A stretch of DNA of 64,000 bases from a virus. Taxonomy: Duplodnaviria > Caudoviricetes. The stretch is from positions 38,867 through 102,866 of IMG/VR virus record IMGVR_UViG_3300021963_007290; one strand, 5' to 3'. Positions 1 to 58,134 of this stretch are shown piece by piece (position 1 is the first letter of the stretch; the number at the start of each line of letters is the position of its first letter). The notes under the pieces are model-generated. The model saw only the letters and a program-made list of their open reading frames with translations, was not told where the DNA came from and ran no database searches. Position numbers and translations under genes: made by a program.

Positions 1-160
1 TATATCTATCAAAGAAAGTAACTTCCTGATAAATGTCATCTCTCAATCTAACTCTTGTAAAAAGATTTTTAACTTTAACATAATCAGATATTCCTATTTT
101 ATCTGGACCTCTTACAATATATTCAAAATCTGGGATTTGTTGAAAATAGTTTCTACTCAT
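1..160 (-). CDS. g53: baseplate wedge subunit gp53 (5' part; runs off the window edge)
   Basis: Manual translation from ATG at 160: MSRNYFQQIPDFEYIVRGPDKIGISDYVKVKNLFTRVRLRDDIYQEVTFFDRY. This resembles the gp53 N-terminus and follows g48 directly, as in T4-like cyanophages. Confidence 0.8.
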   Translation of the reverse strand, partial: MSRNYFQQIPDFEYIVRGPDKIGISDYVKVKNLFTRVRLRDDIYQEVTFFDRY

Positions 161-161
161 T

Positions 162-1454
162 TTAGTAACCTATTAAGTGATCTTTTCCGAATCCTTCTGT
201 ATAATCGGTATCATAAAGAGGTTCAATTTCTTGGAATTGCATATTTAATTCATAACAAACCATAGTTCCCGCACTATCATTATATGTGGCATAATTTCCT
301 AAGGGAGTGTAATTAACTGAACATGCAATTAATGCAGCAGCTTTTGTTTCACCCGATGGTTCTGGACTGATTAAATTCATTGACGGATGTATTTCACTGC
401 CTTTTAAATATTGAATCGTAAAAACATGTGGTGCTTTTAAAAATAATGCAGTATTATCCTTTCTTACAGCCATGTGCCTTTTGAAATATTTAATGATGAA
501 TTTAATTGCAGTAGCTTCATCCTCATCCCTCGCACTCATTTTAAAACTAAACTGAAATGGTCTTAATTGTGGTCCTTGAAAAAGCAGCTCAAGGTTTGGG
601 TTTAAAACTTTTGTTTTTGTTCTTGATAAGATATCAGGAATAGATGCTGCTTGTCCAGCAAGATAATCTTTAAGTTCTTGTTGACTGGCATCTAAATTTT
701 TAAAAAGATCTCCTATCATATCACCAGCACCTTGCCCACCCTCTTTACTCATCATCTCTCTTGATGCGTTAAATACAAAAGCGTCGATAGCAGATAGTTT
801 TCCTTCACCCCATTGGGCAGTATTTGTATCACTTATTGGTCCTTGTATTGCCATATAAATTGAGCTGTCAACTTTTTTATATGTAACATTGGGACTTGAA
901 AAACTACTTACTCCACCCGCACTTGTTGGGGCATTAAATTGTCCTTTTTCAATTTCAACCGCAGTAAATTTAATTTTATCTTGTTGATCGGACATTTGTA
1001 GTGGATATTGTAATCTACCATTAAAAGTTTTTCCAACGGGAAAAAATGCAGCAACTCCACTTGATGCATCATCAGTTGCTCTATATCCTTTATCAGATTC
1101 TATTTGCGAATCAAGAGTATTTGTGGCAGATTTATATTGTTCTTTTTGCTTAATTGATTCTTTTTGTTCTGCTGTTCCTCTGTCTTGTATTAATTTATAA
1201 GTGTTATCTCTTGTAGAAGTTGATATAGCACTCTTTGTATTTTGATCAAGTTGATTCCAGCTATTATCTTTTGCTTGAAAATCTTTTTGATCTGCAGTTC
1301 TTGTTGCAATCACCTTTCCAGATTTATCTACAATTTCTTGAGATCCATCTAATTTTGCGTTTACTGTCCATGGATTTTCACTTGTTCCTCCTGGTGTTCT
1401 TTGACTATATGAGGTAACTTTTCCAGATGAATCTTTATTTTCAGTCCAAGACAT
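162..1454 (-). CDS. g48: baseplate tail-tube cap gp48-like protein
   Basis: Motifs LNPNLELLFQGPQLRPFQFSFKMSAR, FLKAPHVFTIQY and LNMQFQEIEP; position between g4 and g53. Confidence 0.8.
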   Translation of the reverse strand: MSWTENKDSSGKVTSYSQRTPGGTSENPWTVNAKLDGSQEIVDKSGKVIATRTADQKDFQAKDNSWNQLDQNTKSAISTSTRDNTYKLIQDRGTAEQKESIKQKEQYKSATNTLDSQIESDKGYRATDDASSGVAAFFPVGKTFNGRLQYPLQMSDQQDKIKFTAVEIEKGQFNAPTSAGGVSSFSSPNVTYKKVDSSIYMAIQGPISDTNTAQWGEGKLSAIDAFVFNASREMMSKEGGQGAGDMIGDLFKNLDASQQELKDYLAGQAASIPDILSRTKTKVLNPNLELLFQGPQLRPFQFSFKMSARDEDEATAIKFIIKYFKRHMAVRKDNTALFLKAPHVFTIQYLKGSEIHPSMNLISPEPSGETKAAALIACSVNYTPLGNYATYNDSAGTMVCYELNMQFQEIEPLYDTDYTEGFGKDHLIGY

Positions 1455-33130: not shown

Positions 33131-36100
33131 ATGGCTTTTTACGGTTCTGCCTCAGCGAATTTATCACCAATTTTATTTAAAGGAAATTTATTTTCTGAGG
33201 GTGTAAATATTGTAATGCATAGTGATGTTTCACTATCAATGAGTATCCCCTCGCCAATATCTGCTGCTAGTACTAATTATACAATAGCACCAAGAACAAC
33301 AGGAAATTTTGATAATTTTTCGGCAAATTATAGAAACAGTCCTTTTTATGATGGAATATTTCCAGCATATTTGCAGCAATATTTAATTAAAAATAAAGTT
33401 GGTGATTCTTCCAGATCTCCAAATTTATATTCATATTTCGATTCGTCTCCAAGAAGAATTCCAGCATCTGATGGGACAGATCTTTCACCAAAACAATTTA
33501 CAGTAGAAAATACAGAGAATTATACATTTTCAGATGCTTCGATACTTGCAAGAGATACTATATCGGTAGCAAATTATCCAAATTTAGGAAATTTAAAAGA
33601 TACAAAAACATTTTACGACTTTTGGAGAAACAGATATATTGATATAAATTTTAGATCTGCGAGTCAAAGTTTTACATCGACTTATCCATTCAATATAGCA
33701 GCTTTTAACTCTAGATTGTCAGGAGTTGATAGTGTTCAATCATCTATAACATTATATGATAGCACCGTAAATAATAATTCTGCAAGATTATCATATTATT
33801 CCGAAGACGTTCAAGGAAATATTCTATCAATTTATTATAGTGGAATTAGTTCTTCTCCCTCAGTGAAAATCCAAGGTACTGAATTAATTGAAGGAGACAT
33901 TAGTAAATCTCTTATAGGTGGTGATTTATACAAAATACCTAGAAGAAAATTACCAACGTATTTAATTACAGCTTCTAATGAACAAGATAATGCTGCAGCA
34001 GACATAAGTTCTACTACATTTCAAGCAAGATCTAATGTTGGTTATTCTACAGATAAATATGGATTTAGTTCTCAGGGATTATATGCTAGGAGATACAGAG
34101 GTTGTATAGCAAACGTAACTTGGAACTCGGTAATTAAAAAATCGGGAAATGATTATCAAGCTGGAAGTGAACAATATCAAGCATGGATTAACGAATATGC
34201 AGTTCCTCTCCCATTTGGATCTATTACTTCTGGCATAGGAGAAGATGCTTATGGTGTAAATTGGTTTAATAATGGTAGAACTATATCTAGTAATCCATCA
34301 TATACTGGAAATGTTAGATTCACACTTGATATTGGAGGAACTTCACAAGTTCAATATTATTATCAAAGTGGATCTAATTATTTTTATGAGCCAACATATC
34401 CCACAAATACTAGCAATACCGATGTTGAATTTCCCAATGCATATGTTCCCCCCTTCTTGAAGACACTTGCAAATTATGATGTTAATTTTAATCCAGCAGC
34501 AACCGGCACCTCAACTAATTTAACTCAACGAGCAGTAACGGACAGAAACAGATACGGTGCATTTTGGGGACCATTTAATTCTATTGATAGAATAAGATCC
34601 GATATTCAAAATTATACAATAATGATTATTGGATATTTTAGACCTCCTTCTAGTGGAATTTATAAATTTAAACTGACTAATTGCGGACCATGTGCAATTT
34701 GGATTTCAAGTGACGCAAGATTAGTTCCATCAGGAACTACTTGGACTACTGCATCTAGTGTTTTAAATGATGAAGATGTATACAGTAGATGGAATAATCC
34801 ATCTACTGCGACACTTGCTTCTCCTCAAACTACAGCAGCTAGATATTTGGCATCTAATCCAGGACCATCAGATTCAATTGATGATTGGAACTCTGTCTAT
34901 GGATCTGATCCGCAAATCGTAAGTGATTATCTTGAAATGACGGGAGGAAGATATTATCCAATAAGAATTATATTTTCAAATCCTGGAAATGAGCTTCTAA
35001 CGGGGTCTGATAGTAATGGATTCTCAGTACCAAACTCTGCAGGAGAGATAAGTTGCGATGGTACTGCATTATCGTCACAACTCAACCCAAGCTTTTTAAG
35101 ATTATTGGTTTCAAATGCAAAAACAAAACCAGACCCTACTCAATCTTTACCTTCAATTCTTGATACTGAATGGAATCTTAGTACTATAGGCGGAACACCA
35201 ATTTTCTATGGTGGATTGGATGTATGGAAGTATGGGTCTCCATTTTTTCCATTACCTGTAACTCCTATTAATAAAACTATTAAATCTGAAATAGTCGAAA
35301 GAAATTTAAGAGTAATATCACTATCCTCTTATGATTCTGATGATGGTTATGATGGAGTATTTTTCCTTGAAAAACCAGAAGTTTCGGCAGAAAATCAAAG
35401 ATATAGATATATAACTTTATCTGGAGATGATTATAAAAAATCTGATCGTCCTAATCCACCTTCAGATACAAACTGGAGATTTGGAAAATACTTTACTCCA
35501 ATCACATATTCCATAAGTAATCCAACAATAGTAAGTGGTTCTGGTGCTAATTTATCTTTAAATGTTACAAGATTAAATGATAGATATTTAACCTCTGCAT
35601 CTTCTGGTGGAGTGGGATTTAAAACCGGAGATAGAATAAGAGTTTCTAATACCTCTCTTGGAGGAAATGCTGCATTAAATGATCTATTGCTATCGGTTTC
35701 AAATGTAGTTTCTGAATCATATACAGAAACAGGAAATCTTGAAGGTAGTACAAGAACCGATTTACCTTCATTTTTTGTATTTAAAAATGAAGATGGCAAC
35801 AATGTTGCAGATTATACTGTAAAAGTTAATACAGCAGACGCAGGATCTGGTTATTCTGTTGGAGATAGATTAATTATATCTGGAAATCTTCTTGATGGTA
35901 GCAGTGTTAATGATATTAACATAAGAGTTGATCAAGTTGGTGCTGGTGGAACAATCATTGCCATAACACCTATTTTGGGAGCAACAAATTATGGAAGTCC
36001 CACAAACAGAATTGGATACACTGTCGATTTAAATGAATTCAATCCAATAGGATATTCATCAGTTTCATTCAGTTACAATCCATGTACAATTGGATATAGA

Positions 36101-39100
36101 TTTAATAATATATCTGGAGCTGCATATTCAACTGCATCCATAACAGGAATTTCTTATACAACTCTTCCAGTAACTGGTGCTGCTTATAGTTCATTTTCAA
36201 TAACTGGGATTGCATATACTACTGGAAGTATTGTAAGTATTGGATATTCTACTGCAGACATAGTTAGTATTGCATATACATCAAGAAGTATCACAAGTAT
36301 TGGATATTCTGCCGTCAGTATAACTGGAATTGCTTATACAAATGCCGATATTGTTTCAATAGGATATAGTTCTGCTTCTGTAACTGCCATAGGATACACC
36401 TCTCCCCAGGTTGTGAGTATTGGATATACCGCATTTGGAGTTGATAATATTTCATATCCAGAATCTATTACTATATCATCTATAGTTGATACGGGTGGAA
36501 ATCCTGGAAATACAAATGTTGAAATTACTTTAACTGGTGCTCCAGATTTGCAAGTAAATCCAATCGTATCCCCTAACGGATTTGTGATTATTTCCGGAAC
36601 AGGAGATTCAAGAATTGACGGAAGAAGAGAGGTAGCATCTATTGTTAATGCCAATACACTTGAAATTATACCACAAACTCCAATAACTTCAACATTATTA
36701 ATATCTCCTTTATTTGCAAAATTAATAGTTGAAGATGATAATATTGCAGGAAATCCAGTAGGATATGGATCAACAGCATTATTAACAACAACAACTAATC
36801 ATACTTTTAATGTTGGCGACTCTATTATTGTAAGAGGAGTTCAAAACCCACAGTATACGAGTTGGAATTCTACCTTTGTTATTGAAGGAGTAGACAGTCC
36901 AACTTCAGTTTGGCTGCAAAATACAGGAACGGTGGGATTATTTACTGCAACAACTCTTGGGCAAGAAGTTGGAGTAGGTCTTACCGTTGGATATGACCAG
37001 TCAGAATTGCAATTAGAAATAGAAAGACCAGTTCCATATCAACTTGAAGTTGGAATGGGAATAACTGTTTTTGGTGTTACGGGAGAATCGGCAATTTATA
37101 ATAATGGTTATGTAGTCAGATCTATTTTAGCGTCTGATGGAAGCGGTCCATATAAGTTTGATCTTCTTCAAGATCAAACTCCAACACAACTTGCATTATC
37201 AGGAAGCACTGGAAGAGTAGGAATTCATACAATCTCTGGAATTGCAACGGTAACATCTACATCTGTATTTGGAATTCCTGGAGATTTAATTAACTTAAAA
37301 ATAGAAAATTCTCCAAGTTCTTTCTTCAATCAAGTATTTGATGGTGCTGTTATTCTCGATTCATCAAGAATCCTTCTGGGACCTGATAGCTATAGAAATT
37401 CAACAACACCAAATCCACAAGAATATGCAAGCATCAATACTAATCCCTCCACTCTTTCTGGTAGAGTAGGATCACCTTTACAAATTATATACAATAATTT
37501 AACAGCAGGATATACATTTAAGGTTAATGATACAATAGATGTATATAATTGCTCCGAACCATCATATAATACGGTTCCAAATAGTATTCCAATATCTTAT
37601 TATACTATCAGTTCAATTGATAGTATCTTTGGTCAATCAGTTCTGACTTTAACTAAGGTTTCGACAGCAAGCACAATATTCTCTTCAGTTGGACTAAGTG
37701 GCAAAATAGGTGTCAGAGGATTACCTCCAATTGTCACAACGTCTACAGTAAGCGGATTATCAACTGTCTTTGGATCTGTTGGACAAAATATTCAATTTGC
37801 AATTAAAAATTCGTTAAAACAAAATTTAAATTCAGATTTGATCACTTACAATGGAAGAATAATCTCATCCGATCAAATTTTAGTGACTTCTCCAGCAGCT
37901 GCAAATCCTCTTGAACGAAATGATAATTATAACGTAGTAGGATCTGGAGGAACAGTTGGTCTTTCTGGCGCAAAATTGAGGGTTATAACTTCCACTAATC
38001 ATGGATTTGTCGTGGGAAATTCTGTAAGGTTACAGAACATTGCAGATCAACCAATATATAACGGAACTTATATTGTAGATAGAATTGTAAATTCCAATAC
38101 TTTTGAGGTTGATACAACACCATCTACAACTTGGACTCCTAGCACTACTTATGACCGTGCAGGAACTTCTGGACTGGTTGGATTACGTGCCAATGCTGTA
38201 GTTACAACCTTAGCAAGTCATCCATTTATTAATGGCAATGAAGTCAAAATTCAAAGTACAGGAAACTCGGACTTTGATAATAAGACATATTTCGTTCAAA
38301 TTATAGATTCGACTAAATTTACTTTACAATCAACTTCTGCTGATCCTTATACTGATGACTTTACAACTGCTGGGGCACTTAATGGAATAGTGGGTCTTTT
38401 AAACTATCCAGCTACAGTGCAATATAGTTCATCATATGTTTTTAATACTAATGACAAAGTTTCAATCGCAAATACTACAAAAACATATGGAACTTCAAAC
38501 GGAAGATATACAATAACCAGAATTGACAATTCAAGATTTACCTTAGACGTTAATGCAGACAGTGCTACTGATATATCATCTAAGGATACATCTGGACTAA
38601 TTGGATTAATGAATGCAAGACCTGTTGTAACTTATGTTACTAATCATTTCGGAAATATAAACACAGATTTAAAAATAAAAACTAATGATAGTATAAAAAT
38701 TCAATCAACTGGATTATCTCAATTTGACAATATAGTATTTACAGCAACTTTAATTGCAAATGGAGATCCAAATGGAACGTTTGGAATATCTGGTAATAAT
38801 ATTGAAAATTCTTTTACAAGTTTATCTCAACCCAATTTCACCTCTTTCACTGGATCCGCTATTGGTGGATTAATAGGATCAAGATTAAGAATTAGATCTG
38901 TTGGTCACAATTTAAGTGCTACTGGAACAGTAAGAATCCAAGGAACACAATCTAATCAATTTGATGGAAATGCTACCTATACTGTTTTTGATTCCAATAA
39001 TATTGATTTAACTAATAATTCTAGTGATAGCACCACTGATTTTACTAAAACTGAGGGAAGTTCCTCTCTTGCAAGATTGGGTCCGCATGGATATCCTGCT

Positions 39101-41689
39101 ATAGCAACATTTACTAGTTCTTTGCCGGATTCATTTATTACTGGATCTCAAGTTAAAATAGAAGGATCTACTGTAGGATTTAATACAAATCGACTCTATA
39201 CAATAAATCGATATGATAATACTAGAGTTGGATTGGCCGAATCTGTTATAGGGAGTATATATCCCACAGATATCACCCGTGTTGAAAATAGCCCAACTTT
39301 ATATGCTGGATTAGCAGATTCTCCAGTAAGATTGGCTGTTACGGACACTTCAGTTTTTGGTACAGTTGGATCAATTGTGAGAGTAAATGTTTCTGGAATG
39401 AACAATTTCTTTAATGGAACACAAGATGCAAGGATTTCTTCATCAAGTATTTTAGAGTTAATTAATAGAACTAATCCGCACACACAAATTTCATATATTC
39501 CATATAATTTATCTAACATTGATACTACTGGTGTGGTTGGATTGGCAAATGCATTTAGAGTTGTTACTGTTCCCACTGGACACAATTTAGGATCTCCTGG
39601 CAATCAAAGCATTGGAGGATTGATTTATATGAGATCTTCCATACCAACTACAAACAACCCAATATCTTATGATGGAAGGTTTACAATTAGAGAAATTTTG
39701 GATGGTAATAGATTTACAATTGATCAAACTACAAGCAGTACTGCAACACAAAATCCAGGAGATTATGCTATAGTAGACACAAATGCATATTACGTTGGAG
39801 TTAACAGTGGTGCAAGAGTAACTACAACTTCAACTCATTTGCTAAGAAATTCTGATACGGTGACTCTTTTAGATAATCAGTCAGTTTTCCTAAGTCAAGA
39901 TTATACTGTGTCTGCAGTATATTCACCAACAATTGTTAGTTTAACTAATACGTATCCCACTTCAAATGAAAATACATTCAATTTCAAACAGTCATCGACA
40001 AATGGAAATATAACTCCAAAGAGACCAACTGGATCAACTACCGCAAAAATTAAAGTAAATAGAGTTCTTAATACATCAACTGGTGCCGGACAGTATTTAC
40101 TTCCAGGAACAACATCATCTACTGATTTTGTATCTGTTTCTGGCAACAATTATAGAACTGGTCAAAGATTTTTAGTTAGTGGTGGATTGTTGGGAGGGTC
40201 TAATCCCAATAATAATTTGATAGTTACTATAGGATCTGTAAGTAATTTAGGCGAACTTGTGTATATTAATGGAGATACTGCAGGTCTTGGCACATTGCCA
40301 ACGTATCAGGGGGATGCTGATAATACCCTCGACTATTCATTAAATGGATCTCTCATTGCGATAGAATCTAATGATTTTACTGGTGGTGGAATTGGTGCTC
40401 GGTTTAATATTGTCAGAAGTGGGACAAGAACTCCTGCCGGAATACCAACATATTCAAGTGTAACTATCGATAATGGTGGAAATAATTATACTCAAAGTAG
40501 TACTATTAGAATTCGTGGAGATCTTCTTGATGGACTTACTCCACTTAATGATCTTTATGTGAAAATTTTAAGTGTGAACGCTAGTGGAACAATTAATGGT
40601 ATTGCAATTACTGGCATTGCCTCAGATTCTTATGCAGTGTCTGGATTTAGCACAATTTATTATGATGGAACCACCAACGTATCAAGACCATATGGATTAG
40701 AAAGAACTGGAGATTTTGGATCACCTACAAGTCCTTCTTTACCTCCAACTCAAGGTGCATATTTGGAACAAAGACAAGATATGTTGTCTTTGGCTAGAGA
40801 AAATTTTGGTGGAGTTATAAAAATTGGTAAAGTTTATAGTGTTGGAAATCCTGAAAAATCTGCTTCTATTACATCATTATTTGTTTATGGAAATATGTGG
40901 CATAGTAATAATGCTGATGCTGTTGAGTATAATTTTGATAAAGTAACAAATACGGGAATTTGTACAATATATCTAGATGATGATAATGATGATGGTCTTC
41001 CCTTTAGAAATATGTCTGTACTTGATAGAGTTTTTATATATGATTCGGGAAGTCCATATTTAGATTATCCATTGGTCGGGTATGCACATACTATAATTCA
41101 GGTAAATAGTGTTGGTGGCAATGCAACCGGAACTAGAGATTTCATTGTAATAAATACGAAAAATTATAATGCAACAGCAAGTGATGACGATGGAGTAGGG
41201 GCTGGAGGATCTCCAATTAATTTAAAAATCATAAAAACAAATAATCCATTAATAGTACATGCACCCAATCATGGATTTTCAAATGATGAAAGAGTTATCA
41301 TTGGAATTACTACAGATAGATTCGGTCTCCCATACGGAACAAGTACTGGATTGGGAAATACAACTTATAGTATAACAAATGCAAACACAAATACATTTCA
41401 AGTTTACAATGATTCTGGAATAATTAACGCTGAATCACTTTTGAATGGTTCTACAACTCCTTTGGTTAATTATTGGTATGATTTTATTAGAGGAACAGAA
41501 ACTGGATTAAATGGCGAGGTTCAAGGAGTTGTTGGTAGTAACACTAACGATGGAAACAGGGCTCCTTTTGCTCAAATCATCTTAGCAAAAGGAGGAAGAG
41601 CGTCTGTCGTAGGAACAGGAGTTACTCCAGTTGATAATAGAATAGGATTAGCAAAAGCAATTTCGGATTTTATAGTAGAAACTATATAA
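33131..41689 (+). CDS. giant fibre/adhesin-like protein with PA14-like domain and repeated beta-domains (2852 aa)
   Basis: Ser/Thr/Gly-rich; GYFRPPSSGIYKF and GRYYPIRI (PA14-like); 10-aa tandem repeats; about 14 H(G/T)FxxGDxV-type domains. Confidence 0.75.
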   Translation: MAFYGSASANLSPILFKGNLFSEGVNIVMHSDVSLSMSIPSPISAASTNYTIAPRTTGNFDNFSANYRNSPFYDGIFPAYLQQYLIKNKVGDSSRSPNLYSYFDSSPRRIPASDGTDLSPKQFTVENTENYTFSDASILARDTISVANYPNLGNLKDTKTFYDFWRNRYIDINFRSASQSFTSTYPFNIAAFNSRLSGVDSVQSSITLYDSTVNNNSARLSYYSEDVQGNILSIYYSGISSSPSVKIQGTELIEGDISKSLIGGDLYKIPRRKLPTYLITASNEQDNAAADISSTTFQARSNVGYSTDKYGFSSQGLYARRYRGCIANVTWNSVIKKSGNDYQAGSEQYQAWINEYAVPLPFGSITSGIGEDAYGVNWFNNGRTISSNPSYTGNVRFTLDIGGTSQVQYYYQSGSNYFYEPTYPTNTSNTDVEFPNAYVPPFLKTLANYDVNFNPAATGTSTNLTQRAVTDRNRYGAFWGPFNSIDRIRSDIQNYTIMIIGYFRPPSSGIYKFKLTNCGPCAIWISSDARLVPSGTTWTTASSVLNDEDVYSRWNNPSTATLASPQTTAARYLASNPGPSDSIDDWNSVYGSDPQIVSDYLEMTGGRYYPIRIIFSNPGNELLTGSDSNGFSVPNSAGEISCDGTALSSQLNPSFLRLLVSNAKTKPDPTQSLPSILDTEWNLSTIGGTPIFYGGLDVWKYGSPFFPLPVTPINKTIKSEIVERNLRVISLSSYDSDDGYDGVFFLEKPEVSAENQRYRYITLSGDDYKKSDRPNPPSDTNWRFGKYFTPITYSISNPTIVSGSGANLSLNVTRLNDRYLTSASSGGVGFKTGDRIRVSNTSLGGNAALNDLLLSVSNVVSESYTETGNLEGSTRTDLPSFFVFKNEDGNNVADYTVKVNTADAGSGYSVGDRLIISGNLLDGSSVNDINIRVDQVGAGGTIIAITPILGATNYGSPTNRIGYTVDLNEFNPIGYSSVSFSYNPCTIGYRFNNISGAAYSTASITGISYTTLPVTGAAYSSFSITGIAYTTGSIVSIGYSTADIVSIAYTSRSITSIGYSAVSITGIAYTNADIVSIGYSSASVTAIGYTSPQVVSIGYTAFGVDNISYPESITISSIVDTGGNPGNTNVEITLTGAPDLQVNPIVSPNGFVIISGTGDSRIDGRREVASIVNANTLEIIPQTPITSTLLISPLFAKLIVEDDNIAGNPVGYGSTALLTTTTNHTFNVGDSIIVRGVQNPQYTSWNSTFVIEGVDSPTSVWLQNTGTVGLFTATTLGQEVGVGLTVGYDQSELQLEIERPVPYQLEVGMGITVFGVTGESAIYNNGYVVRSILASDGSGPYKFDLLQDQTPTQLALSGSTGRVGIHTISGIATVTSTSVFGIPGDLINLKIENSPSSFFNQVFDGAVILDSSRILLGPDSYRNSTTPNPQEYASINTNPSTLSGRVGSPLQIIYNNLTAGYTFKVNDTIDVYNCSEPSYNTVPNSIPISYYTISSIDSIFGQSVLTLTKVSTASTIFSSVGLSGKIGVRGLPPIVTTSTVSGLSTVFGSVGQNIQFAIKNSLKQNLNSDLITYNGRIISSDQILVTSPAAANPLERNDNYNVVGSGGTVGLSGAKLRVITSTNHGFVVGNSVRLQNIADQPIYNGTYIVDRIVNSNTFEVDTTPSTTWTPSTTYDRAGTSGLVGLRANAVVTTLASHPFINGNEVKIQSTGNSDFDNKTYFVQIIDSTKFTLQSTSADPYTDDFTTAGALNGIVGLLNYPATVQYSSSYVFNTNDKVSIANTTKTYGTSNGRYTITRIDNSRFTLDVNADSATDISSKDTSGLIGLMNARPVVTYVTNHFGNINTDLKIKTNDSIKIQSTGLSQFDNIVFTATLIANGDPNGTFGISGNNIENSFTSLSQPNFTSFTGSAIGGLIGSRLRIRSVGHNLSATGTVRIQGTQSNQFDGNATYTVFDSNNIDLTNNSSDSTTDFTKTEGSSSLARLGPHGYPAIATFTSSLPDSFITGSQVKIEGSTVGFNTNRLYTINRYDNTRVGLAESVIGSIYPTDITRVENSPTLYAGLADSPVRLAVTDTSVFGTVGSIVRVNVSGMNNFFNGTQDARISSSSILELINRTNPHTQISYIPYNLSNIDTTGVVGLANAFRVVTVPTGHNLGSPGNQSIGGLIYMRSSIPTTNNPISYDGRFTIREILDGNRFTIDQTTSSTATQNPGDYAIVDTNAYYVGVNSGARVTTTSTHLLRNSDTVTLLDNQSVFLSQDYTVSAVYSPTIVSLTNTYPTSNENTFNFKQSSTNGNITPKRPTGSTTAKIKVNRVLNTSTGAGQYLLPGTTSSTDFVSVSGNNYRTGQRFLVSGGLLGGSNPNNNLIVTIGSVSNLGELVYINGDTAGLGTLPTYQGDADNTLDYSLNGSLIAIESNDFTGGGIGARFNIVRSGTRTPAGIPTYSSVTIDNGGNNYTQSSTIRIRGDLLDGLTPLNDLYVKILSVNASGTINGIAITGIASDSYAVSGFSTIYYDGTTNVSRPYGLERTGDFGSPTSPSLPPTQGAYLEQRQDMLSLARENFGGVIKIGKVYSVGNPEKSASITSLFVYGNMWHSNNADAVEYNFDKVTNTGICTIYLDDDNDDGLPFRNMSVLDRVFIYDSGSPYLDYPLVGYAHTIIQVNSVGGNATGTRDFIVINTKNYNATASDDDGVGAGGSPINLKIIKTNNPLIVHAPNHGFSNDERVIIGITTDRFGLPYGTSTGLGNTTYSITNANTNTFQVYNDSGIINAESLLNGSTTPLVNYWYDFIRGTETGLNGEVQGVVGSNTNDGNRAPFAQIILAKGGRASVVGTGVTPVDNRIGLAKAISDFIVETI
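36110..36469 (+). repeat. 12 x 30-nt (10-aa) degenerate tandem repeat, consensus (I/V)(T/V)(G/S)I(G/A)Y(S/T)xxx
   Basis: ISGAAYSTAS ITGISYTTLP VTGAAYSSFS ITGIAYTTGS IVSIGYSTAD IVSIAYTSRS ITSIGYSAVS ITGIAYTNAD IVSIGYSSAS VTAIGYTSPQ VVSIGYTAFG VDNISYPESI; the 30-nt period is exact. Confidence 0.9.
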
Positions 41690-41751: not shown

Positions 41752-44700
41752 ATGGCCTCAATCAATAAGAATTTTGTTGTAAGAAATGGTCTTGAGGTAA
41801 ATAACAGTTTAATTTATGCTGAAATAACTAATAGAAGAGTTGGTATTGGTATAACAACTCCTATTAGAAGGTTGCACGTAAAGGGTGGTGCATATTTTGA
41901 TCCTGGCCTTGAAGTTTTAGGAATTGTAACTTCCAGTGGATTAGTTGTAGGTGGAACTGGAACAATTCAAGATCTGATTGTTCCTACTAGTGGTATAATA
42001 AACAATTTAACTGTAGGAAATTTAGATGTAGCATTTAATGCTGAAGTAGGGCAGGATCTTACGGTAGGGGGAAGATTATTTGTAGATCAATATTATGGAA
42101 ATGGTGACACATTAAGTGGAATTGTTACTCAAATTGTTGCTGGTGCTGGAATTTCGATTACAGCAACTCAAGAACCAGGAAAAGGCATTGTAACAATTGA
42201 TGCATTTTCTCCTGTAGGGAAAACAGTATTTGTAACCCAAAATGGAAACGATAATAATACAGGATTGAGTTTAGATGATGCTAAAAAAACAATTAAGGCA
42301 GCTGCAGCAACTGCATTAACAAGAGATACTATTAAAGTTTATCCTGGTGTTTATGTAGAAGATAATCCTATCATCTTAAATGAACTTGTTTCAATGGAGG
42401 GTGGTGAATTAAGAAACGTAGTTATAACTCCAAGATTCCCAGAACGAGATATGTTCTATGTGAATAATGGATGTCACGTAACAGACATGAGTTTTATTGG
42501 TGTTCCAGCAAGAGATGGAGCAGCAATGGTTGCTTTAGAACAACTTCGTGGAGTAAAGGAAGATAGATATTTTGATGCTGCACGAATGATCCGATTTAAT
42601 TTGGATTATATTGCAAGAGAATCGGTTGGATTTTTGACTAGTGGGTATAGTGGATTTGCTGGAGATCACCTCGCACAAGATGCTGCTAAAAAAATAGATG
42701 CGAATATCAATTTTATTGCCGCAGAAACGATTGGATTTTTAACCAGCACTGCATATTTAAATCCACCATTTATAATTACAAATGCCATAGGTGTTGCAAC
42801 TCATCCAATTAATTGTGAAGATGATATTAAAGATATTCTTAGATCTTTATCTAATGATTTAAAAGCAGGAAGCAATAAAAAAATAATAGGAGCAGGTTTA
42901 TCTTATTATAGTGATGAAACTCTATTGCATATCACTGGAGATGATCCAAATGGAAATTCAATATTAAATGCAACTGTAGAGGCAATAAATTATGCAGTAG
43001 GTATTGTTACAACTATTGTTAGAGATAGAGATTGGGCACTTCAATCTGGAGTAACAACTTATGCTGCATCTAGAGAAATATATCAAGATTTTTCTTATAG
43101 TCCACTTCCGGGAAATTGTGCTGGAACAATTTCAATAATTGAAAATGAAAGAGATACTTTACTTACAATACTTCAAGATGGTCCAAATTCTGCATTTAAT
43201 GTTACAGGAATAACAACTGTTTATGGAGTAAACCTTGAAGTAAAAGAAGATTGTGTTGATGATGTTAAAAATGTTTGGAAGCAAATTGTATTTGATTTAA
43301 CCCGAGGTGGAAATAGCAAAGTAGTAGAAGCAGGAAAAATTTATTTTGATGATAATGGAACATCTACATGGGATTTAAAACCTTTATTAAAAAATCCAAG
43401 TGAAGTAGAACAAACAATAGTAACATTAGAACATTCACTTGAGATAGCAAAATCAGTTGTTAATAATAATTGTTTTGGTCAATTTGGAGCATATTTTGCA
43501 GGAATTACTACATATCCAAAACTATATGTTTTAGATGCATGGTATGATAATCATTGCGGTCTTATGACTGTTTTTGTAGGTGATTCTGATGGAACTCCAG
43601 TTCCGATGCAAGAAGCTGGATTATTACCTGGAGACCCTGTTTATTTTAAAGATTTGGTATTTGGTTGCGGTAGTGGAACAGTAGGACCAAACGCATTTAG
43701 CACAGCAGTATTCCCATCAAAAGAAGCACAAACAGAATATGGTGGAAATTATTATGGCAATACTTTCTGCGTATGGACTGTAGATCCTGACATTCAAGAT
43801 CAATTTGGAAGTAATACATTCCAAGTTCTTGTAGGACCTTCAACAATCAGTCATTATTATTCAAATGACACTACAACTACCCCACCATCGGTAATTAGTG
43901 ATTGGGATAGCACTCAAACAATTAATCATGGATATAATTCTGGAATTGTTGAAAGAAAGACCAATTTCCAGAAAGAATATACACAAATAAAAGATCTTGC
44001 AATACAAAAAGATCCGACAATTGGATGTGAAGAATTTTATCCACAAGGATTTAATGAATCTGTTGCTGGATGTAAAAATGTTATTTCATCATTAACTTCA
44101 TTAGTAGGAGTCGTGACTTCAATTTTAGGATATGGGGCAACGAGTGGAATCTCTACTTCATATCCTGGAAATAGAGGGGAAGGAATTCCATCATCTAACT
44201 TAAAGTATGTAAGCACTGCTGCATATGATAATATTAAAGGAAAAGTAATTGTTACTGTTCCAGGATTAAATGCGGTAAAAGGTGATAGAATAGAACTTCG
44301 CGATCTGACATTCTCATGTAACTCAGGTGGTCCAACAAGTTCTCAAAAATTCCCATCAGGAACTTATGGATACAGTTTTTATATTGACAAAAAGATTGGA
44401 GATAACTATACATTAAACGTTGGAACGTCAACGTTGCCCCATACTTATGAAGGTGGTGGATATGTAATTGATAGAACTTTTGATATAGCAACTGCTCCTT
44501 ATAATCATACAACAGGCATTGTCACAATAACTGCACCAGGAGCTTATGTATCCAGGGGGGATATTGTTACGATCAGAGATTTATTATACAATTGTGGAGG
44601 ACCCTCTGCGGTAACTTTCCCAAATGAGGCAGTTCAGACGGAATATGGTGGCAAATTCTATGGAAACAATTTCACTGTAGTTGATATCGTTTCGGATCGT

Positions 44701-46227
44701 GTTTATGACGCAGTTGATTGTCAATATACACATACGACAGGATTAACAACAATAACTGTTATTAATCCAAATTTCTCAGTATCTGAAGGAGATCTTGTAG
44801 AGATAAGAAATTTTGAATTTGATTGTACAAGTGGAGCAGCAACAACTACAATCTATCCAACAGGAAATAGTGGTGGATTTGTATTTAAAGTTTATGCTGT
44901 TTCTGGAGACGACTTTGAAATTTATACAGGTGAAGGTCCATTCCCCCACACTTATGTCCAAGGTGGAACGGTAAGAAATGTCACTCAAAGAAAGAGCAGT
45001 ACATTTACTTTGGATGTTGGAATTTCAACAATACCTCATACTTATGTTGGTCCTTCTGGATATATAATTCCCCCATATTCTCCAGGTGTTGGTCCCATTA
45101 CTCAAGGTCCATATATTAGAAACTGTACTAACTTTGTTGCTAATAGTATTGGAATGAAAGTTGACGGTTTTGATGCTGAACCAGGAAATGAAGATGACAT
45201 TGGTGTAACTGGTACAATGAGTGTTGACTCATATACTCAGTATAATCAAGGTGGTATTGGAGTTTCAATTACTAACGGTGGATACGCTCAGTTGGTTTCT
45301 ATCTTTACCATTTGCGATGACATTGCAATTTATACTGGATCTGGTGGACAATGTGACCTTACAAACTCAAATGCTTCTTTTGGTAACTATGGATTGTATT
45401 CAAATGGAGTTGGTGATGCTAGAAGTAAATCAATTTATCATACAACGGGATTTGTTGCTGAACAAGCTTTAGTTGAGCAAGATAGAATAATTATTGCCGG
45501 TGTAGGAACATATAGACCTTATGATGGACAAGCTTTATACTTTGGTGAATTATTTAAGAGTGTTAAAAAATTAACGGTATTGAATGGAGGAAGTGGATAT
45601 AGTGCTTTAGTTCCACCAAATGTAACTGTTGAAGAACCACCAGCAGATGCAAGAGGTATTAAAGCTGAAGGTAGTGTCAACGTCGATCCATCTACTGGAG
45701 CGATAACTTCAATTGACGTAATTAGTGAAGGTAGTCAGTATAGAGGTGTCCCAATAGTTACCATTGATCCTCCACCACCTGGAGGAACTCAAGCTACTGC
45801 ACAAGCAGAAATGGAGCCAATATATTATTATATTGAAAGTGCCACAATTCCTTATAATAATGGTATCACAGGAATTTCAACAGTTGTCCTAACTCAGAAT
45901 CTAAATAATACAATAGAAAGAGATACTACAGTATATTTTTCTAGATTAAGTTTGCAAATTGCAACAACTATTTCATTTGAATGGGTTGGTGCAGGAACAA
46001 ACATCAACAAAGCAAAGCCTGCACTTGGAGGCGTAACAATTGCCGAAAATGAAGTTGTTAAATTGAATGGTGGTCAGGTTGTATTTACAAGTACAAACCA
46101 AGCAGGTAACTTTAGAATTGGAACTGATTTAACTATTAATCAGTTGACTGGAACAATCACTGGTCGAGCATTTAGTCAAAGTTTATTACAAACAGTAACT
46201 CCACTCATCATCGCATTAGGTAAGTAA
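41752..46227 (+). CDS. beta-helix fibre protein with large internal insertion (1491 aa)
   Basis: VFVTQNGNDNNTG..AKKTIKAA, GPYIRNCTNF, DSYTQYNQGG, CDLTNSNASFG; paralogue of 52714..54576. Confidence 0.75.
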   Translation: MASINKNFVVRNGLEVNNSLIYAEITNRRVGIGITTPIRRLHVKGGAYFDPGLEVLGIVTSSGLVVGGTGTIQDLIVPTSGIINNLTVGNLDVAFNAEVGQDLTVGGRLFVDQYYGNGDTLSGIVTQIVAGAGISITATQEPGKGIVTIDAFSPVGKTVFVTQNGNDNNTGLSLDDAKKTIKAAAATALTRDTIKVYPGVYVEDNPIILNELVSMEGGELRNVVITPRFPERDMFYVNNGCHVTDMSFIGVPARDGAAMVALEQLRGVKEDRYFDAARMIRFNLDYIARESVGFLTSGYSGFAGDHLAQDAAKKIDANINFIAAETIGFLTSTAYLNPPFIITNAIGVATHPINCEDDIKDILRSLSNDLKAGSNKKIIGAGLSYYSDETLLHITGDDPNGNSILNATVEAINYAVGIVTTIVRDRDWALQSGVTTYAASREIYQDFSYSPLPGNCAGTISIIENERDTLLTILQDGPNSAFNVTGITTVYGVNLEVKEDCVDDVKNVWKQIVFDLTRGGNSKVVEAGKIYFDDNGTSTWDLKPLLKNPSEVEQTIVTLEHSLEIAKSVVNNNCFGQFGAYFAGITTYPKLYVLDAWYDNHCGLMTVFVGDSDGTPVPMQEAGLLPGDPVYFKDLVFGCGSGTVGPNAFSTAVFPSKEAQTEYGGNYYGNTFCVWTVDPDIQDQFGSNTFQVLVGPSTISHYYSNDTTTTPPSVISDWDSTQTINHGYNSGIVERKTNFQKEYTQIKDLAIQKDPTIGCEEFYPQGFNESVAGCKNVISSLTSLVGVVTSILGYGATSGISTSYPGNRGEGIPSSNLKYVSTAAYDNIKGKVIVTVPGLNAVKGDRIELRDLTFSCNSGGPTSSQKFPSGTYGYSFYIDKKIGDNYTLNVGTSTLPHTYEGGGYVIDRTFDIATAPYNHTTGIVTITAPGAYVSRGDIVTIRDLLYNCGGPSAVTFPNEAVQTEYGGKFYGNNFTVVDIVSDRVYDAVDCQYTHTTGLTTITVINPNFSVSEGDLVEIRNFEFDCTSGAATTTIYPTGNSGGFVFKVYAVSGDDFEIYTGEGPFPHTYVQGGTVRNVTQRKSSTFTLDVGISTIPHTYVGPSGYIIPPYSPGVGPITQGPYIRNCTNFVANSIGMKVDGFDAEPGNEDDIGVTGTMSVDSYTQYNQGGIGVSITNGGYAQLVSIFTICDDIAIYTGSGGQCDLTNSNASFGNYGLYSNGVGDARSKSIYHTTGFVAEQALVEQDRIIIAGVGTYRPYDGQALYFGELFKSVKKLTVLNGGSGYSALVPPNVTVEEPPADARGIKAEGSVNVDPSTGAITSIDVISEGSQYRGVPIVTIDPPPPGGTQATAQAEMEPIYYYIESATIPYNNGITGISTVVLTQNLNNTIERDTTVYFSRLSLQIATTISFEWVGAGTNINKAKPALGGVTIAENEVVKLNGGQVVFTSTNQAGNFRIGTDLTINQLTGTITGRAFSQSLLQTVTPLIIALGK

Positions 46228-46602: not shown

Positions 46603-49539
46603 ATGACACGTAACAGATATAACACCGGAAGATCACTTAGAAAAGAACCAACTGGAATTTCCAGTGATAGATACCAGTATATTGGTTTAGATCAAACTGA
46701 ACCATCTCTTGGTGATCCTTTGGTTGGAATTTCTTCCATTTTATATAATCCCTCGGGAGTATCTACTGGCATAAGTAGCAGTGGAACCTATGTCTTAGTC
46801 ACAAAAGCAGGTGATCCAAAACGATATTGGCTCGATCCTTTCCAATTAGATACTGACGGTATTCAAGGAACTCAGGGAACTCAAGGTGTTCAAGGAACTC
46901 AGGGAACTCAAGGTGTTCAAAATGCTCAGGGAACTCAAGGTGCTTTAAGTAATTTCCAAGGAACTCAGGGCGTTCAAGGTCAGCAAGGACCTCAGGGTGT
47001 TCAGGGTCTTCAGGGTCTTCAGGGCATTCAGGGTCCATTAAGTAACTTTCAAGGTGTTCAGGGTTCCGCAGCAACACAAGGAACACAAGGTCTTCAAGGT
47101 GTCCAAGGTAGTCAAGGAAACCAAGGACTTCAAGCATCTCAAGGAACCCAAGGAACAACCGGAACTCAAGGAAGGCAAGGAAATCAAGGACTATCTAACC
47201 AAGGTATTAGTGGTCAACAAGGACTTCAAGGTGCTTTAAGCAATTTCCAGGGAACTCAAGCAAATCAGGGAGTTCAGGGAACTCAAGGTGTTCAAGGATT
47301 AAGTAATCAGGGAGTTCAGGGTGTTTCTGGGCAAGCAGTATTTAAAGGAGATCAAGGAACTCAAGGTCTTCAAGGTGTTCAAGGTCCGTTAAGTAATTTC
47401 CAAGGAACTCAAGGACTTCAAGGTGATCAAGGAACTCAAGCAAATCAGGGAGTTCAGGGAAATCAAGGTGTTCAAGGATTACAAGGTTGTCAAGGATTCC
47501 CTGGTTCAGCACAAGGAGATCAAGGTCTTCAAGGTGTTCAAGGACCATTAAGTAATTTCCAAGGAACGCAGGGCGTTCAGGGAATGCAAGGAAACCAAGG
47601 AGTTCAAGGAAGATCAAATCAAGGTCTTCAAGGACCTCAGGGTACACAAGGTCTCCAAGGAATGCAAGGGTTTGCTGGTTCAGCACAAGGAGAACAAGGA
47701 CTTCAAGGAAATCAAGGAGTTCAAGGACCATTAAGTAATTTCCAAGGAACACAAGGAAATCAAGGGGTCTCTGGATTTGCTCAGGGTAATCAGGGTATTC
47801 AAGGAACTCAAAATGCCCAAGGAAATCAAGGTCTCCAGGGAATGCAAGGATTTGCTGGTTCAGCACAAGGAGAACAAGGACTTCAAGGACTTCAAGGAAT
47901 ACAAGGACCATTAAGTAATTTCCAAGGAACACAAGGAAATCAAGGTTTACAAGGATATGCCGGAGCATCACAAGGACTTCAGGGAGATCAAGGAGTTCAA
48001 GGCCTTCAAGGTGTTCAGGGTCTTCAAGGAAGACAAGGAACTCAAGGTGTTCAGGGACATCAAGGAGTACAAGGATTTTTAAGTAATTTCCAAGGAACAC
48101 AAGGAAATCAAGGTTTACAAGGATATGCCGGAGCATCACAAGGACTTCAGGGAGATCAAGGAGTTCAAGGCCTTCAAGGTGTTCAGGGTCTTCAAGGAAG
48201 ACAAGGAACTCAAGGTGTTCAGGGTCTTCAAGGAAGACAAGGTGTTCAAGGATTCCAAGGTCTTCAAGCAACTCAAGGTTTACAGGGAAATCAAGGAGTA
48301 CAAGGTGTTCAAGGTATAATTGGTAGCAGCATTAAACTTGTAGCGGCAGATTCGGATGTTGTTACAAATGCTGGTGGATTAGGCAACGTAGATTCTTATC
48401 TAACAACTACTTATGTCAATCAAGCCCCATTTGCTCAGGTTGGAAATGGAATTGTTGATTCATCAAATAGAAATATTTGGATATATCAAGGTGGTGGTGA
48501 TTGGACTAATGTTGGGGATCTTTCTGTACAAGGAATTCAGGGAACACAGGCAGTTCAAGGTCTTCAGGGAAGACAGGGAACTCAAGGTCTTCAAGGAAAT
48601 CAAGGACTTGCGGCAGCAAAACAACTTGGTGGAGATTTAATTTATGCACCTGGAACAACTGGTTCAGTTCCAACAACTCAAGGACAATTTAAATTTACAA
48701 GAGTTGCTTCAGTTGCAGCAGATCCATCTGCTCCATCAGATCTTGGTGCATATGATAGATGGTTAGTTAATATTACAGATGCTCTTGGCCAATCTTTAGC
48801 TGGTATTTTTAGTGTAATTGATGCCGTAGATAATCCACAAAGAGCAGTTGTAACAATATCCGAAAAAGGAAATACTGCAATATTTACAAGTTTCTTAGTT
48901 GTTGCACCAGATAGCGTATTAACTTCAAATTATAGAACGTTTACTGTAAGTGAAGTAGCTTCCAGTGCAAGTCCCAATGTATTTACAAGTGGAAATCAAT
49001 ATACACTTACAGTTTCACTGGTTGGTGCTCAAGGAATTCAAGGAGTTCAAGGAGTTCAAGGAGTTCAAGGAGTTCAAGGAGTTCAAGCAAATCAAGGTCT
49101 TCAGGGTGGAAATTCTGAGACATCAATCATTGTTGCTCTTGGTGATGAATTTACAAATATCGGAATTGGAACAAGTGTCGTAATATTCAGAGCACCATTT
49201 AGATTTAGAATGACTGAACCACCTACGATTTCACTTTCTCAAGCAGCAACAGTTGGAATTACAAGTGTTAATATTTGGTATCAAGCACGACTTTCAAATC
49301 CAGTTTCTGGAATCTGGACAAGTGTATTTCAATCTAATACGCAAGTAGCTAACATTGCAGTAGGACAATATGATAGTTTTGATAGTCCAGCTGTAACTCC
49401 TGCTCTTAAATCAACCGGAGATGCCACATTCCCCGGAAACATAATCAATAGAAATGATAAGATCAGATTCGACATTACTGGAATAGGAACTGCAGGAAAG
49501 GGATTAAAGGCAACTATATACTATTCAAGAATACCATAA
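46603..49539 (+). CDS. collagen-like (Gly-X-Gln) fibre protein 1 (978 aa)
   Basis: Long GxQ repeats (about 46858-48325) with SNF/SA interruptions, two further short GxQ tracts, and a globular C-terminal domain. Confidence 0.85.
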   Translation: MTRNRYNTGRSLRKEPTGISSDRYQYIGLDQTEPSLGDPLVGISSILYNPSGVSTGISSSGTYVLVTKAGDPKRYWLDPFQLDTDGIQGTQGTQGVQGTQGTQGVQNAQGTQGALSNFQGTQGVQGQQGPQGVQGLQGLQGIQGPLSNFQGVQGSAATQGTQGLQGVQGSQGNQGLQASQGTQGTTGTQGRQGNQGLSNQGISGQQGLQGALSNFQGTQANQGVQGTQGVQGLSNQGVQGVSGQAVFKGDQGTQGLQGVQGPLSNFQGTQGLQGDQGTQANQGVQGNQGVQGLQGCQGFPGSAQGDQGLQGVQGPLSNFQGTQGVQGMQGNQGVQGRSNQGLQGPQGTQGLQGMQGFAGSAQGEQGLQGNQGVQGPLSNFQGTQGNQGVSGFAQGNQGIQGTQNAQGNQGLQGMQGFAGSAQGEQGLQGLQGIQGPLSNFQGTQGNQGLQGYAGASQGLQGDQGVQGLQGVQGLQGRQGTQGVQGHQGVQGFLSNFQGTQGNQGLQGYAGASQGLQGDQGVQGLQGVQGLQGRQGTQGVQGLQGRQGVQGFQGLQATQGLQGNQGVQGVQGIIGSSIKLVAADSDVVTNAGGLGNVDSYLTTTYVNQAPFAQVGNGIVDSSNRNIWIYQGGGDWTNVGDLSVQGIQGTQAVQGLQGRQGTQGLQGNQGLAAAKQLGGDLIYAPGTTGSVPTTQGQFKFTRVASVAADPSAPSDLGAYDRWLVNITDALGQSLAGIFSVIDAVDNPQRAVVTISEKGNTAIFTSFLVVAPDSVLTSNYRTFTVSEVASSASPNVFTSGNQYTLTVSLVGAQGIQGVQGVQGVQGVQGVQANQGLQGGNSETSIIVALGDEFTNIGIGTSVVIFRAPFRFRMTEPPTISLSQAATVGITSVNIWYQARLSNPVSGIWTSVFQSNTQVANIAVGQYDSFDSPAVTPALKSTGDATFPGNIINRNDKIRFDITGIGTAGKGLKATIYYSRIP

Positions 49540-57900: not shown

Positions 57901-58134
57901 CAAGTCATTTACAATGATAATGGAGTTTCTGGTGGTGCATCAGGTCTCAACTATGACGATGTAAATGTGAGAGTTGGTATTGGAACATCATCACCACAAT
58001 TCCGTGCTGATATTGCTGGAGATCTTCGTATTACCGATTCAAATAAATTGAGATTTGGTGGAACTTCTTCATCCACCAATTTCTATATACAATATAACTC
58101 ATCTACAAATAGTTTAGATTTCATATCGGGTTAA
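54922..58134 (+). CDS. collagen-like (Gly-X-Gln) fibre protein 2 (1070 aa)
   Basis: About 250 in-register GxQ triplets (55618-57885) flanked by VGIGT tail-fibre motifs. Confidence 0.88.
55618..57885 (+). repeat. 9-nt-period repeat (GGN NNN CAR) encoding Gly-X-Gln
   Basis: Continuous caagg periodicity over about 2.27 kb. Confidence 0.95.

Follow-up and report, generated by a model that had tools for sequence, protein, structure and literature searches.

The window analysed here is a stretch of 64,000 nucleotides (nt) from a virus of the Caudoviricetes (IMG/VR record IMGVR_UViG_3300021963_007290, positions 38,867 to 102,866), and its subject is a protein of 2852 amino acids (aa), P0001, encoded within it. 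We propose, with good confidence, that the middle of P0001 forms a single-chain, recursively nested rod of 14 layers. The chain would first lay down 14 short β-strands in tandem (residues 976-1109), then form one complete β-barrel of the FCCH/endosialidase-like type (D0), which would be the tip of a hairpin, and return through 14 barrels without a first strand (D1-D14), each closed by one of the strands laid down on the way out. The sequence anatomy behind this proposal and the one-to-one co-variation of strands and barrels among relatives are direct observations. For the pairing topology we depend on predictions from two programs, AlphaFold2 (AF2) and ESMFold2, and the length, rigidity and oligomeric state of the resulting stalk, as well as its role in adsorption, are matters that we infer.

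Anatomy of the strand array and the barrels

An earlier reading of the window made from its letters (hereafter the sequence-only reading) had described, at about 36000-36470, 12 exact 10-aa units with additional degenerate ones, followed by one complete domain and about 14 incomplete domains of 70-90 aa, with two GGxGY-type domains flanking the block on each side. The translation of P0001 agrees on every point. Twelve tyrosines stand at an exact 10-residue spacing (999, 1009 ... 1109) in [IV]x[GS][IA][GA]Y units, residues 994-1109, and two compressed units ending in Y982 and Y989 precede them; with the anchor units upstream, the region occupies nt ~36005-36457. D0 is followed by 14 domains, 69-90 aa in length and alignable with one another, that extend from residue 1214 to ~2302 (nt 36770-40036). 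Their consensus reads roughly ..A.VTT...H.F..GD.V.I......F.NG.Y.V..I.S..F.L......G.VGL, and a profile hidden Markov model (HMM) built from them recovers all 14. The number of orphan strands, which had been judged roughly equal to that of the incomplete domains, is in fact identical to it (14 = 14). The parts of the block are as follows.

35543..35941, + strand: two N-side flanking GGxGY..GD..ND domains, residues ~805-859 and 893-937, from the translation and conserved columns.
36005..36055, + strand: outer anchor units, ..RIGY at 963 and ..NPIGY at 975, family-conserved and left out of the donor-strand count.
36056..36457, + strand: array of 14 putative donor strands, residues 976-1109 (2 compressed units and 12 exact decapeptides), from the translation; AF2 predicts strands of 6-8 residues, and residues 1019-1060 all lie in the predicted ESMFold2 interface.
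36458..36769, + strand: D0, one contiguous complete barrel of ~104 aa, residues 1110-1213, the predicted hairpin tip; AF2 model range 58..148 against 4hiz_A.
36770..37963, + strand: barrels D1-D5, residues 1214-1611, from the HMM; AF2 ranges 46..236-240 (D1), 37..313-315 (D2), 17..476 (D4) and 4/5..558 (D5), the pairing of D3 not being seen.
37964..38878, + strand: barrels D6-D9, residues 1612-1916, docked in trans with strands 1017-1062 in the ESMFold2 prediction.
38879..40036, + strand: barrels D10-D14, residues 1917-2302, from the HMM; pairing with strands at ~976-1018 expected from count and register.
40043..40576, + strand: two C-side flanking GGxGY..GD..ND domains, residues ~2305-2370 and 2423-2482, from the translation and conserved columns.

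The strands are near-identical among themselves, and the barrels have diverged as far from one another as paralogues do. At the DNA level the array is weakly repetitive (60-nt period, 2.4 copies, 73% matches; window 36200-36341), and the decapeptide periodicity is therefore kept at the level of the protein. Between successive barrels of D1-D14, the G.VGL at the end of one is followed almost immediately by the next one's A.VTT strand.

That D1-D14 lack a first strand is suggested by complete copies of the same barrel, which bear a contiguous first strand directly upstream. Such copies occur in a neighbouring protein of 940 aa, where the D-domain HMM finds at least two barrels, at residues 250-306 (E 1.6e-07) and 380-435 (E 5.7e-04), both of them preceded by a strand of their own, and in barrels inserted into D2 of homologues, whose opening GITSIAY is the decapeptide motif. 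The first strands that the sequence-only reading had quoted from two other neighbours, of 2135 and 620 aa, do exist, but the HMM links neither protein to the D domains and at E ≤ 0.1 reaches the 940-aa neighbour alone. We also considered G.VGL as the first strand of the next barrel (D3, for example, reads ..RVGIHTISGIATV, resembling VSSIQYTPSTGIATV of the 2135-aa protein), a question that sequence alone could not settle.

In P0010, P0012, P0013, P0015-P0018 and P0026, the insertion in D2 comprises an extra 200-400 aa just after TVGYxQSELEL and contains one complete barrel, or two, that have a first strand of their own (GITSIAY...). The insertions in these relatives would be side-branches within the main nest.

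Strand and barrel numbers co-vary among relatives

Relatives of P0001 were collected by a word-indexed search, which returned 17 proteins of 2629-3349 aa, and by an exhaustive profile-free search, which added P0019, P0020, P0026, P0036 (1614 aa) and a fragment, P0022 (574 aa), that was left out of the counts. Barrels were counted by an iterated HMM. D0 was not counted, nor were the complete barrels, one or two per protein, within D2 of P0010, P0012, P0013, P0015-P0018 and P0026, the weak hits that fall beyond the array in the flanks and the C-terminal region (scores up to ~20), or single weak extra hits in P0017 (score 3) and P0013 (score 0). Strand units were counted by a manual rule, taking all units between a conserved N/S-P-x-x linker and D0. 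An automatic walk along the aromatic residues miscounts the degenerate outer region, giving 15-18 units for 12-16 barrels, and the manual rule and a regression on span were used instead.

By these counts, the number of strands equals the number of barrels in 22 of 22 full-length family members:

6 strands and 6 barrels: P0036.
12 strands and 12 barrels: P0008, P0020 and P0026.
14 strands and 14 barrels: P0001-P0007, P0009-P0015, P0017 and P0019 (16 proteins).
16 strands and 16 barrels: P0016 and P0018.

The span from the outer anchor tyrosine to the innermost tyrosine grows in parallel, from 67 residues for 6 barrels to 128-136 for 12, 146-152 for 14 and 179 for 16, and its regression on barrel number has a slope of 10.6 residues per barrel and an intercept of 1.3 (r = 0.98). 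This one-to-one co-variation over four layer numbers is independent of structure predictors.

The layers that come and go can be located to some extent. Equivalents of D4-D5 are absent from P0008 and P0020 and occur twice in P0016 and P0018. An irregular unit of 13 residues, which is the 8th spacing from the inside in the 14-layer relatives, is the 10th in P0016 and P0018, which is where two additional layers on its inner side would put it. Every layer number observed is even (6, 12, 14, 16), and gain and loss both involve the D4-D5 pair; the even numbers, together with the 60-nt (two-unit) period of the DNA, hint at change by pairs of layers. A finer match of irregular strand units to barrel junction lengths was also sought, and it was dropped when it gave a partial, clade-bound pattern only. 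A short relative, P0036, has six strands and six strand-less barrels, and its whole nested unit takes up ~560 aa.

Pairing predicted in cis

The input for AF2 comprised residues 1054-1611 (558 aa, with a 10-sequence alignment), which hold five strand units, D0 and D1-D5 and were chosen as a piece that would be self-contained if the nesting were real. The model has a mean predicted local distance difference test score (pLDDT) of 67.9 and a predicted template modelling score (pTM) of 0.43, and its strand units take the form of 6-8-residue strands with 2-4 residues between them. It was read out through the ranges of VIA-align structural alignments (50 rows sorted by model range, with 67-91 aligned residues each, rows 8 and 26 excepted), which fall into the following classes.

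58..148-162: D0 alone (~7 rows).
43-47..236-240: strand 48-55 plus D1 (~25 rows).
36/37..313-315: strand 40-45 plus D2 (~4 rows).
16/17..476-477: strand 18-25 plus D4 (~9 rows).
4/5..558: strand 8-15 plus D5 (~2 rows).
Ambiguous ranges: ~3 rows.

Specifically, four of the five inner layers (D1, D2, D4 and D5) give matches of one strand plus one barrel in mirror order. A single-barrel match that spans residues 4 to 558 skips all that lies between, and the predicted pairing is therefore anti-diagonal. The same range classes appeared again when the Foldseek candidates of this model were re-examined. A Foldseek search of the model against the PDB gave poor global matches only (template modelling score ≤ 0.14) and was set aside.

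Pairing predicted in trans

The register of this model can be extrapolated to the outer layers. Dk would be closed by the ~8 residues preceding Tyr 1109-10(k-1), such that D1 would receive the last strand of the array and D14 the first. ESMFold2 was given barrels D6-D9 (1612-1916) and strands 1017-1062, all of them outside the AF2 model, each with a family alignment. The resulting complex has an interaction prediction score from aligned errors (ipSAE) of 0.86, compared with 0.01 for the best of three controls (0.00-0.01). Among solved complexes 58 of 80 attain this mark, and among mismatched pairs 2 of 110, a rough guide only, since our own alignments were used. At least 94% of contacts agree between runs, and the partner pLDDT is at least 88.

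The contacts of lowest predicted error join 1690-1693 (the A.VTT strand) and 1753-1756 (G.VGL) of D7 with 1040-1047, 1761-1765 and 1822-1826 of D8 with 1030-1039, and 1833 of D9 with 1027. For D7-D9 these contacts are those of the register extrapolated from the AF2 model. They place the donated strand between the barrel's own first (A.VTT) and last (G.VGL) strands, which is where strand 1 of a barrel would be expected. To our knowledge, no comparable complex has been solved that ESMFold2 could have memorised. The ESMFold2 model supports the binding of strands to barrels but does not show it.

Taken with the AF2 model, these predictions support the nested insertion with strand donation that the sequence-only reading had proposed, but they move its register by one: the last periodic unit, VDNISY, would complete D1 and not D0, which in the model uses its own following strand, ITISSIV (1113-1120). 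The reverse order of pairing anticipated there appears in AF2 for four of the five inner layers and in ESMFold2 for D7-D9, although the model of a 12-layer homologue failed to place its strands. Co-variation of repeat and domain counts in homologues, which had been named as a further check, came out as one to one in all 22 (6, 12, 14 and 16).

Weighing the nested rod against its rivals

Several points weigh against the single-chain nested rod. The largest model, an AF2 prediction of the whole 12-layer unit of P0008 (residues 842-1993, 1152 aa, 18-row alignment), has a mean pLDDT of 55.5 and a pTM of 0.27, and its strand array (model residues 1-134) lies at a pLDDT of 25-38, with almost no secondary structure, and is unplaced. 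VIA-align recovers D0 from this model (again as a match to the phi92 endosialidase barrel, Z 9.9), plus a range consistent with a strand and D1 in 2 of 50 rows. Because the strands were left unplaced, the complete architecture is not reproduced in one model, and for layers D10-D14 of P0001 we infer the pairing from counting and extrapolation. The 558-aa model has its own weaknesses: its pTM is 0.43, two of its five models have mean pLDDT values of 52 and 45, D3 is poorly predicted, and the pairing of D3 is not seen. As VIA-align gives the first and last aligned residues only, the strand assignment relies on ranges in place of mapped contacts. AF2 and ESMFold2 are both inclined to pair up free β-edges, and the ESMFold2 controls were unrelated proteins and not β-strand peptides, so that two pieces of one chain may pass easily. 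The N-terminal segments of D2 (TVGYDQSE..) and D3 (..VGIHTISG..) also look like first strands of their own. All of the evidence for pairing is computational, and monomers alone were modelled, while fibre proteins are often trimers.

A first rival is an exchange of strands between molecules, in which the product would be either an antiparallel swapped dimer, about twice as long and with both D0 barrels in its middle, or a polymer like those of donor-strand exchange. The trans complex passes strongly, which implies that complementation needs no covalent continuity; equal numbers and antiparallel order suit a swapped dimer as well as a hairpin; and the full-length monomer model of P0008 did not close. 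We consider such an exchange unlikely nonetheless. The innermost strand lies ~4 residues from D0 and D0 leads directly into D1, which makes closure in cis the shortest path, and the 558-aa monomer model does close in cis for four of its five layers.

It is also conceivable that the decapeptides form a β-structure of their own, a solenoid or β-meander perhaps like that of DotG/IcmE, beside barrels that are complete with G.VGL as first strand, so that the equal numbers would mean only that two neighbouring rods match in length. A sequence search of the PDB matches the strand array to the DotG/IcmE repeats of Legionella (E 4e-19), P0001 has a weak match to PF25296 (Decapeptide), the G.VGI-H-TISGIATV stretch of D3 resembles the contiguous first strand and hairpin of the 2135-aa neighbour, and the large AF2 model of P0008 left the array unplaced. 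Against this, no solenoid formed in any AF2 model (the 558-aa piece of P0001 or the 12 layers of P0008), the DotG-type matches share the G-[YF]-[ST] periodicity only, with charged units AGY[ST]A.[ED]LK and matched query positions of ~38-160 only, the PF25296 match reaches 19.1 bits against a cut-off of 45, and the ESMFold2 contacts put each strand between A.VTT and G.VGL of one barrel. Separate rods thus appear very improbable to us. We give similarly little credence to the most sceptical reading, which is that present data do not allow the topology to be decided, the models being artefacts of predictors that complete sheets with any strand, and that the real assembly differs, for example as an intertwined trimer. 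Its force comes from the fact that the structural evidence is all machine prediction, that confidence in cis is moderate (pLDDT 67.9, pTM 0.43) and that the largest model failed; yet the one-to-one co-variation over four layer numbers needs no predictor, and two different programs agree on one register with unrelated-protein controls at 0.00-0.01.

Proposed architecture and assembly

In the single-chain nested rod that we favour, each donated strand would slot between A.VTT and G.VGL and thereby close its barrel. If each layer spans ~3.3 nm of extended strand, the stalk would be ~45 nm long. The base would bring together the lectin-like PA14/GLEYA N-terminal part of the protein, the 550 aa at its C-terminus and the four domains that flank the block, and D0 would be distal. 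Folding would be expected to zip outward from D0. We suggest that interchangeable, near-identical strands would let the register re-set after a barrel is gained or lost.

We further think it reasonably likely that P0001 and its relatives represent a new class of repeat protein that may be called a mirror repeat, in which N interchangeable 10-residue strands and N strand-less barrels are zipped from the tip into a stapled single-chain rod. The termini of such a rod would be virion-proximal and its distal end a lone barrel, and evolution would have set its length anywhere from 6 to 16 layers by adding or removing strands and barrels together. The endosialidase barrel binds sialic acid in endoNF. 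Because D0 resembles the endosialidase barrel, a glycan-binding tip is at most a possibility.

Genomic setting

The window is low in guanine and cytosine (~32-41% in most 2-kb bins) and coding nearly throughout, with genes almost all on one strand. P0001, a giant cyanophage protein of the tail region, sits in a block of tail, baseplate and fibre genes, its neighbours being annotated by PHROGs and Pfam.

33131..41689, + strand: open reading frame of the 2852-aa protein P0001.
34607..34810, + strand: PA14/GLEYA-like lectin-type segment in the N-terminal part of P0001, residues 493-560 (PF07691, E 4e-07, 30.4 bits, cut-off 24; PF10528, 26.4 bits, cut-off 26.2).

The PHROGs matched by the neighbours of P0001 are a baseplate tube cap, a baseplate hub, a tail protein and tail fibres, and the N-terminal 837 aa of the 2135-aa neighbour are 50-53% identical to tail-fibre proteins of T4-like Synechococcus phages, among them S-SCSM1, Bellamy and S-SM2. 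Although its neighbours match fibre PHROGs, P0001 itself matches no PHROG family at E ≤ 0.001. It also gave no match by megablast, or by tblastn with three of its parts, among 50,697 deposited phage records, a set that may lack records closely related to the genome of the window. In a Pfam scan of P0001, the PA14/GLEYA-type segment alone is above cut-off, and PF25296 (Decapeptide) and E1_FCCH are sub-threshold.

Other long proteins accompany P0001. The same fibre block contains two long collagen-like proteins, at 46603-49539 and 54922-58134 (PF01391, E 8e-50 and 1e-117). A 1491-aa protein has tandem complete domains of the Y..TG..T[VI]T type (41752-46227), and the 940-aa protein mentioned above (58467-61289) matches phrog_5838 (virion structural protein). 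A 2213-aa protein with Amidase_2 and Peptidase_M15 segments (9613-16254) is encoded upstream of the genes for the tail protein and the baseplate hub.

Comparison with known systems

We found no prior description of a strand array combined with strand-less barrels in a phage protein in open-licence papers and preprints, and the ESM Atlas yielded weak leads only (best 0.87). The unit of which P0001 is built is nevertheless familiar. In the AF2 model, D0 aligns with the phi92 endosialidase barrel 4hiz_A (VIA-align Z 9.4, root-mean-square deviation (rmsd) 2.3, 81 aligned residues), and a strand plus D5 aligns with the E1 FCCH domain 4p22_B (Z 8.9, rmsd 2.3, 77 aligned) and with 9mc4_A (Z 8.7). Across 4p22_B, 9mc4_A, 6dc6_A and 7sol_C, the shared E1_FCCH fold gives Z 8.1-8.9, rmsd 2.3-2.5 and 77-82 aligned residues, where a Z near 8 is only moderately above the background of the tool. 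At the sequence level, PF16190 (E1_FCCH) matches residues 1617-1665 in D6 over profile positions 7-56 of 70, with an E of 0.025 and 15.1 bits, below its gathering threshold of 29.5. The FCCH domain of ubiquitin-activating E1 and the barrels of phage endosialidases (phi92, K1F, NF) thus have the same single-unit fold as the predicted D domains, but those domains are contiguous and single, whereas 14 of the 15 copies in P0001 appear to lack strand 1 in cis. Tandem barrels in cyanophage fibre and baseplate proteins are of the same type: Foldseek against BFVD gave 103 matches at E ≤ 0.001, including the S-SM2 fibre, tail-fibre-like proteins of ACG-2014f and the Bellamy baseplate wedge initiator. 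In the copies of the 940-aa neighbour, unlike those of P0001, the first strand is directly upstream, and no separate strand array was seen in that protein.

The completion of a β-domain by a strand from elsewhere recalls chaperone-usher pili, in which an immunoglobulin-like fold missing its last strand receives a donor strand from the next subunit and both a chaperone and an usher are needed. P0001 shares with these pili an incomplete β-domain that would be complemented from elsewhere; in its case, it is the first strand of the barrel that is missing, and the same chain is its most likely donor. Among the genes annotated around P0001, neither a chaperone nor an usher was noticed.

The strand array has resemblances of its own, as dozens of proteins match it alone in the exhaustive search. 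Repeats of the DotG/IcmE type (PDB 7muc and 9ngw chains), which are probably Pfam PF25296, share with P0001 the 10-residue periodicity and G-[YF]-[ST] (E 4e-19). Unlike P0001, DotG-type proteins have charged units, ..A.[ED]LK.AG[YF][ST], in 40 or more copies that extend over hundreds of residues, with no barrel array after them, and we set the relation aside as one of shared periodicity and not of shared architecture. A literature search on decapeptides brought up only unrelated work on trophinin, keratin and mussels. Charged decapeptides of the form AGY[ST]A.[ED]LK number from tens to hundreds in P0021, P0023-P0025 and P0027-P0035, which match the strand array only; by eye, some of these giants also carry fibronectin-type-III-like arrays or RCC1-like repeats. 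For a pentapeptide-repeat β-helix, the whole of P0001 gave no such Pfam family at E ≤ 0.1, and the models contain no solenoid.

The closest parallel is found in the Si3 insertion of cyanobacterial RNA polymerase. There, the chain is reported to double back over itself and to assemble four sandwich-barrel hybrid motifs (SBHMs) from segments that lie far apart (PMC10895346), and a 2026 survey of 2.7 million domains gives a six-level nest in Prochlorococcus rpoC2 as an example of complexity (PMC13114784). As in Si3 (β', RpoC2), the chain of P0001 is predicted to fold back and to build small β-domains from sequence-distant segments, in AF2 for D1, D2, D4 and D5 and in ESMFold2 for D7-D9, and the numbers of outgoing and returning segments are equal in 22 of 22 relatives. 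Homology of the barrels to SBHMs has as its sole link an insignificant Foldseek row (8emb_B, E 1.2e-2), with no such Pfam hit at E ≤ 0.1; the P0001 barrel resembles FCCH and endosialidase barrels. Recursive insertion as such is already known, and P0001 differs in its depth, its regularity, its outgoing limb of uniform decapeptides and its setting. The predicted nest has 14 levels (6 to 16 in relatives) compared with 6 in Si3, its outgoing limb provides one uniform 10-residue strand per level, its array is regular and unbranched, and it belongs to a protein of a phage tail module.

If our proposal is correct, recursive domain nesting would here reach a depth and a regularity beyond any known case, with 14 levels in P0001 and 16 in relatives, the deepest that we found in print being the six levels given in the survey (PMC13114784). 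It would raise a question of folding, as 130 residues of sticky strands would have to wait for their barrels to be made, and would also lead one to ask how both limbs change number in step and how stapling affects stiffness and resistance to force and proteases. Both chain ends would be at one end of the rod, which would change how such a fibre is read. With its six layers, P0036 offers a small and tractable test object, and the principle could serve protein design in the making of rigid rods of set length.

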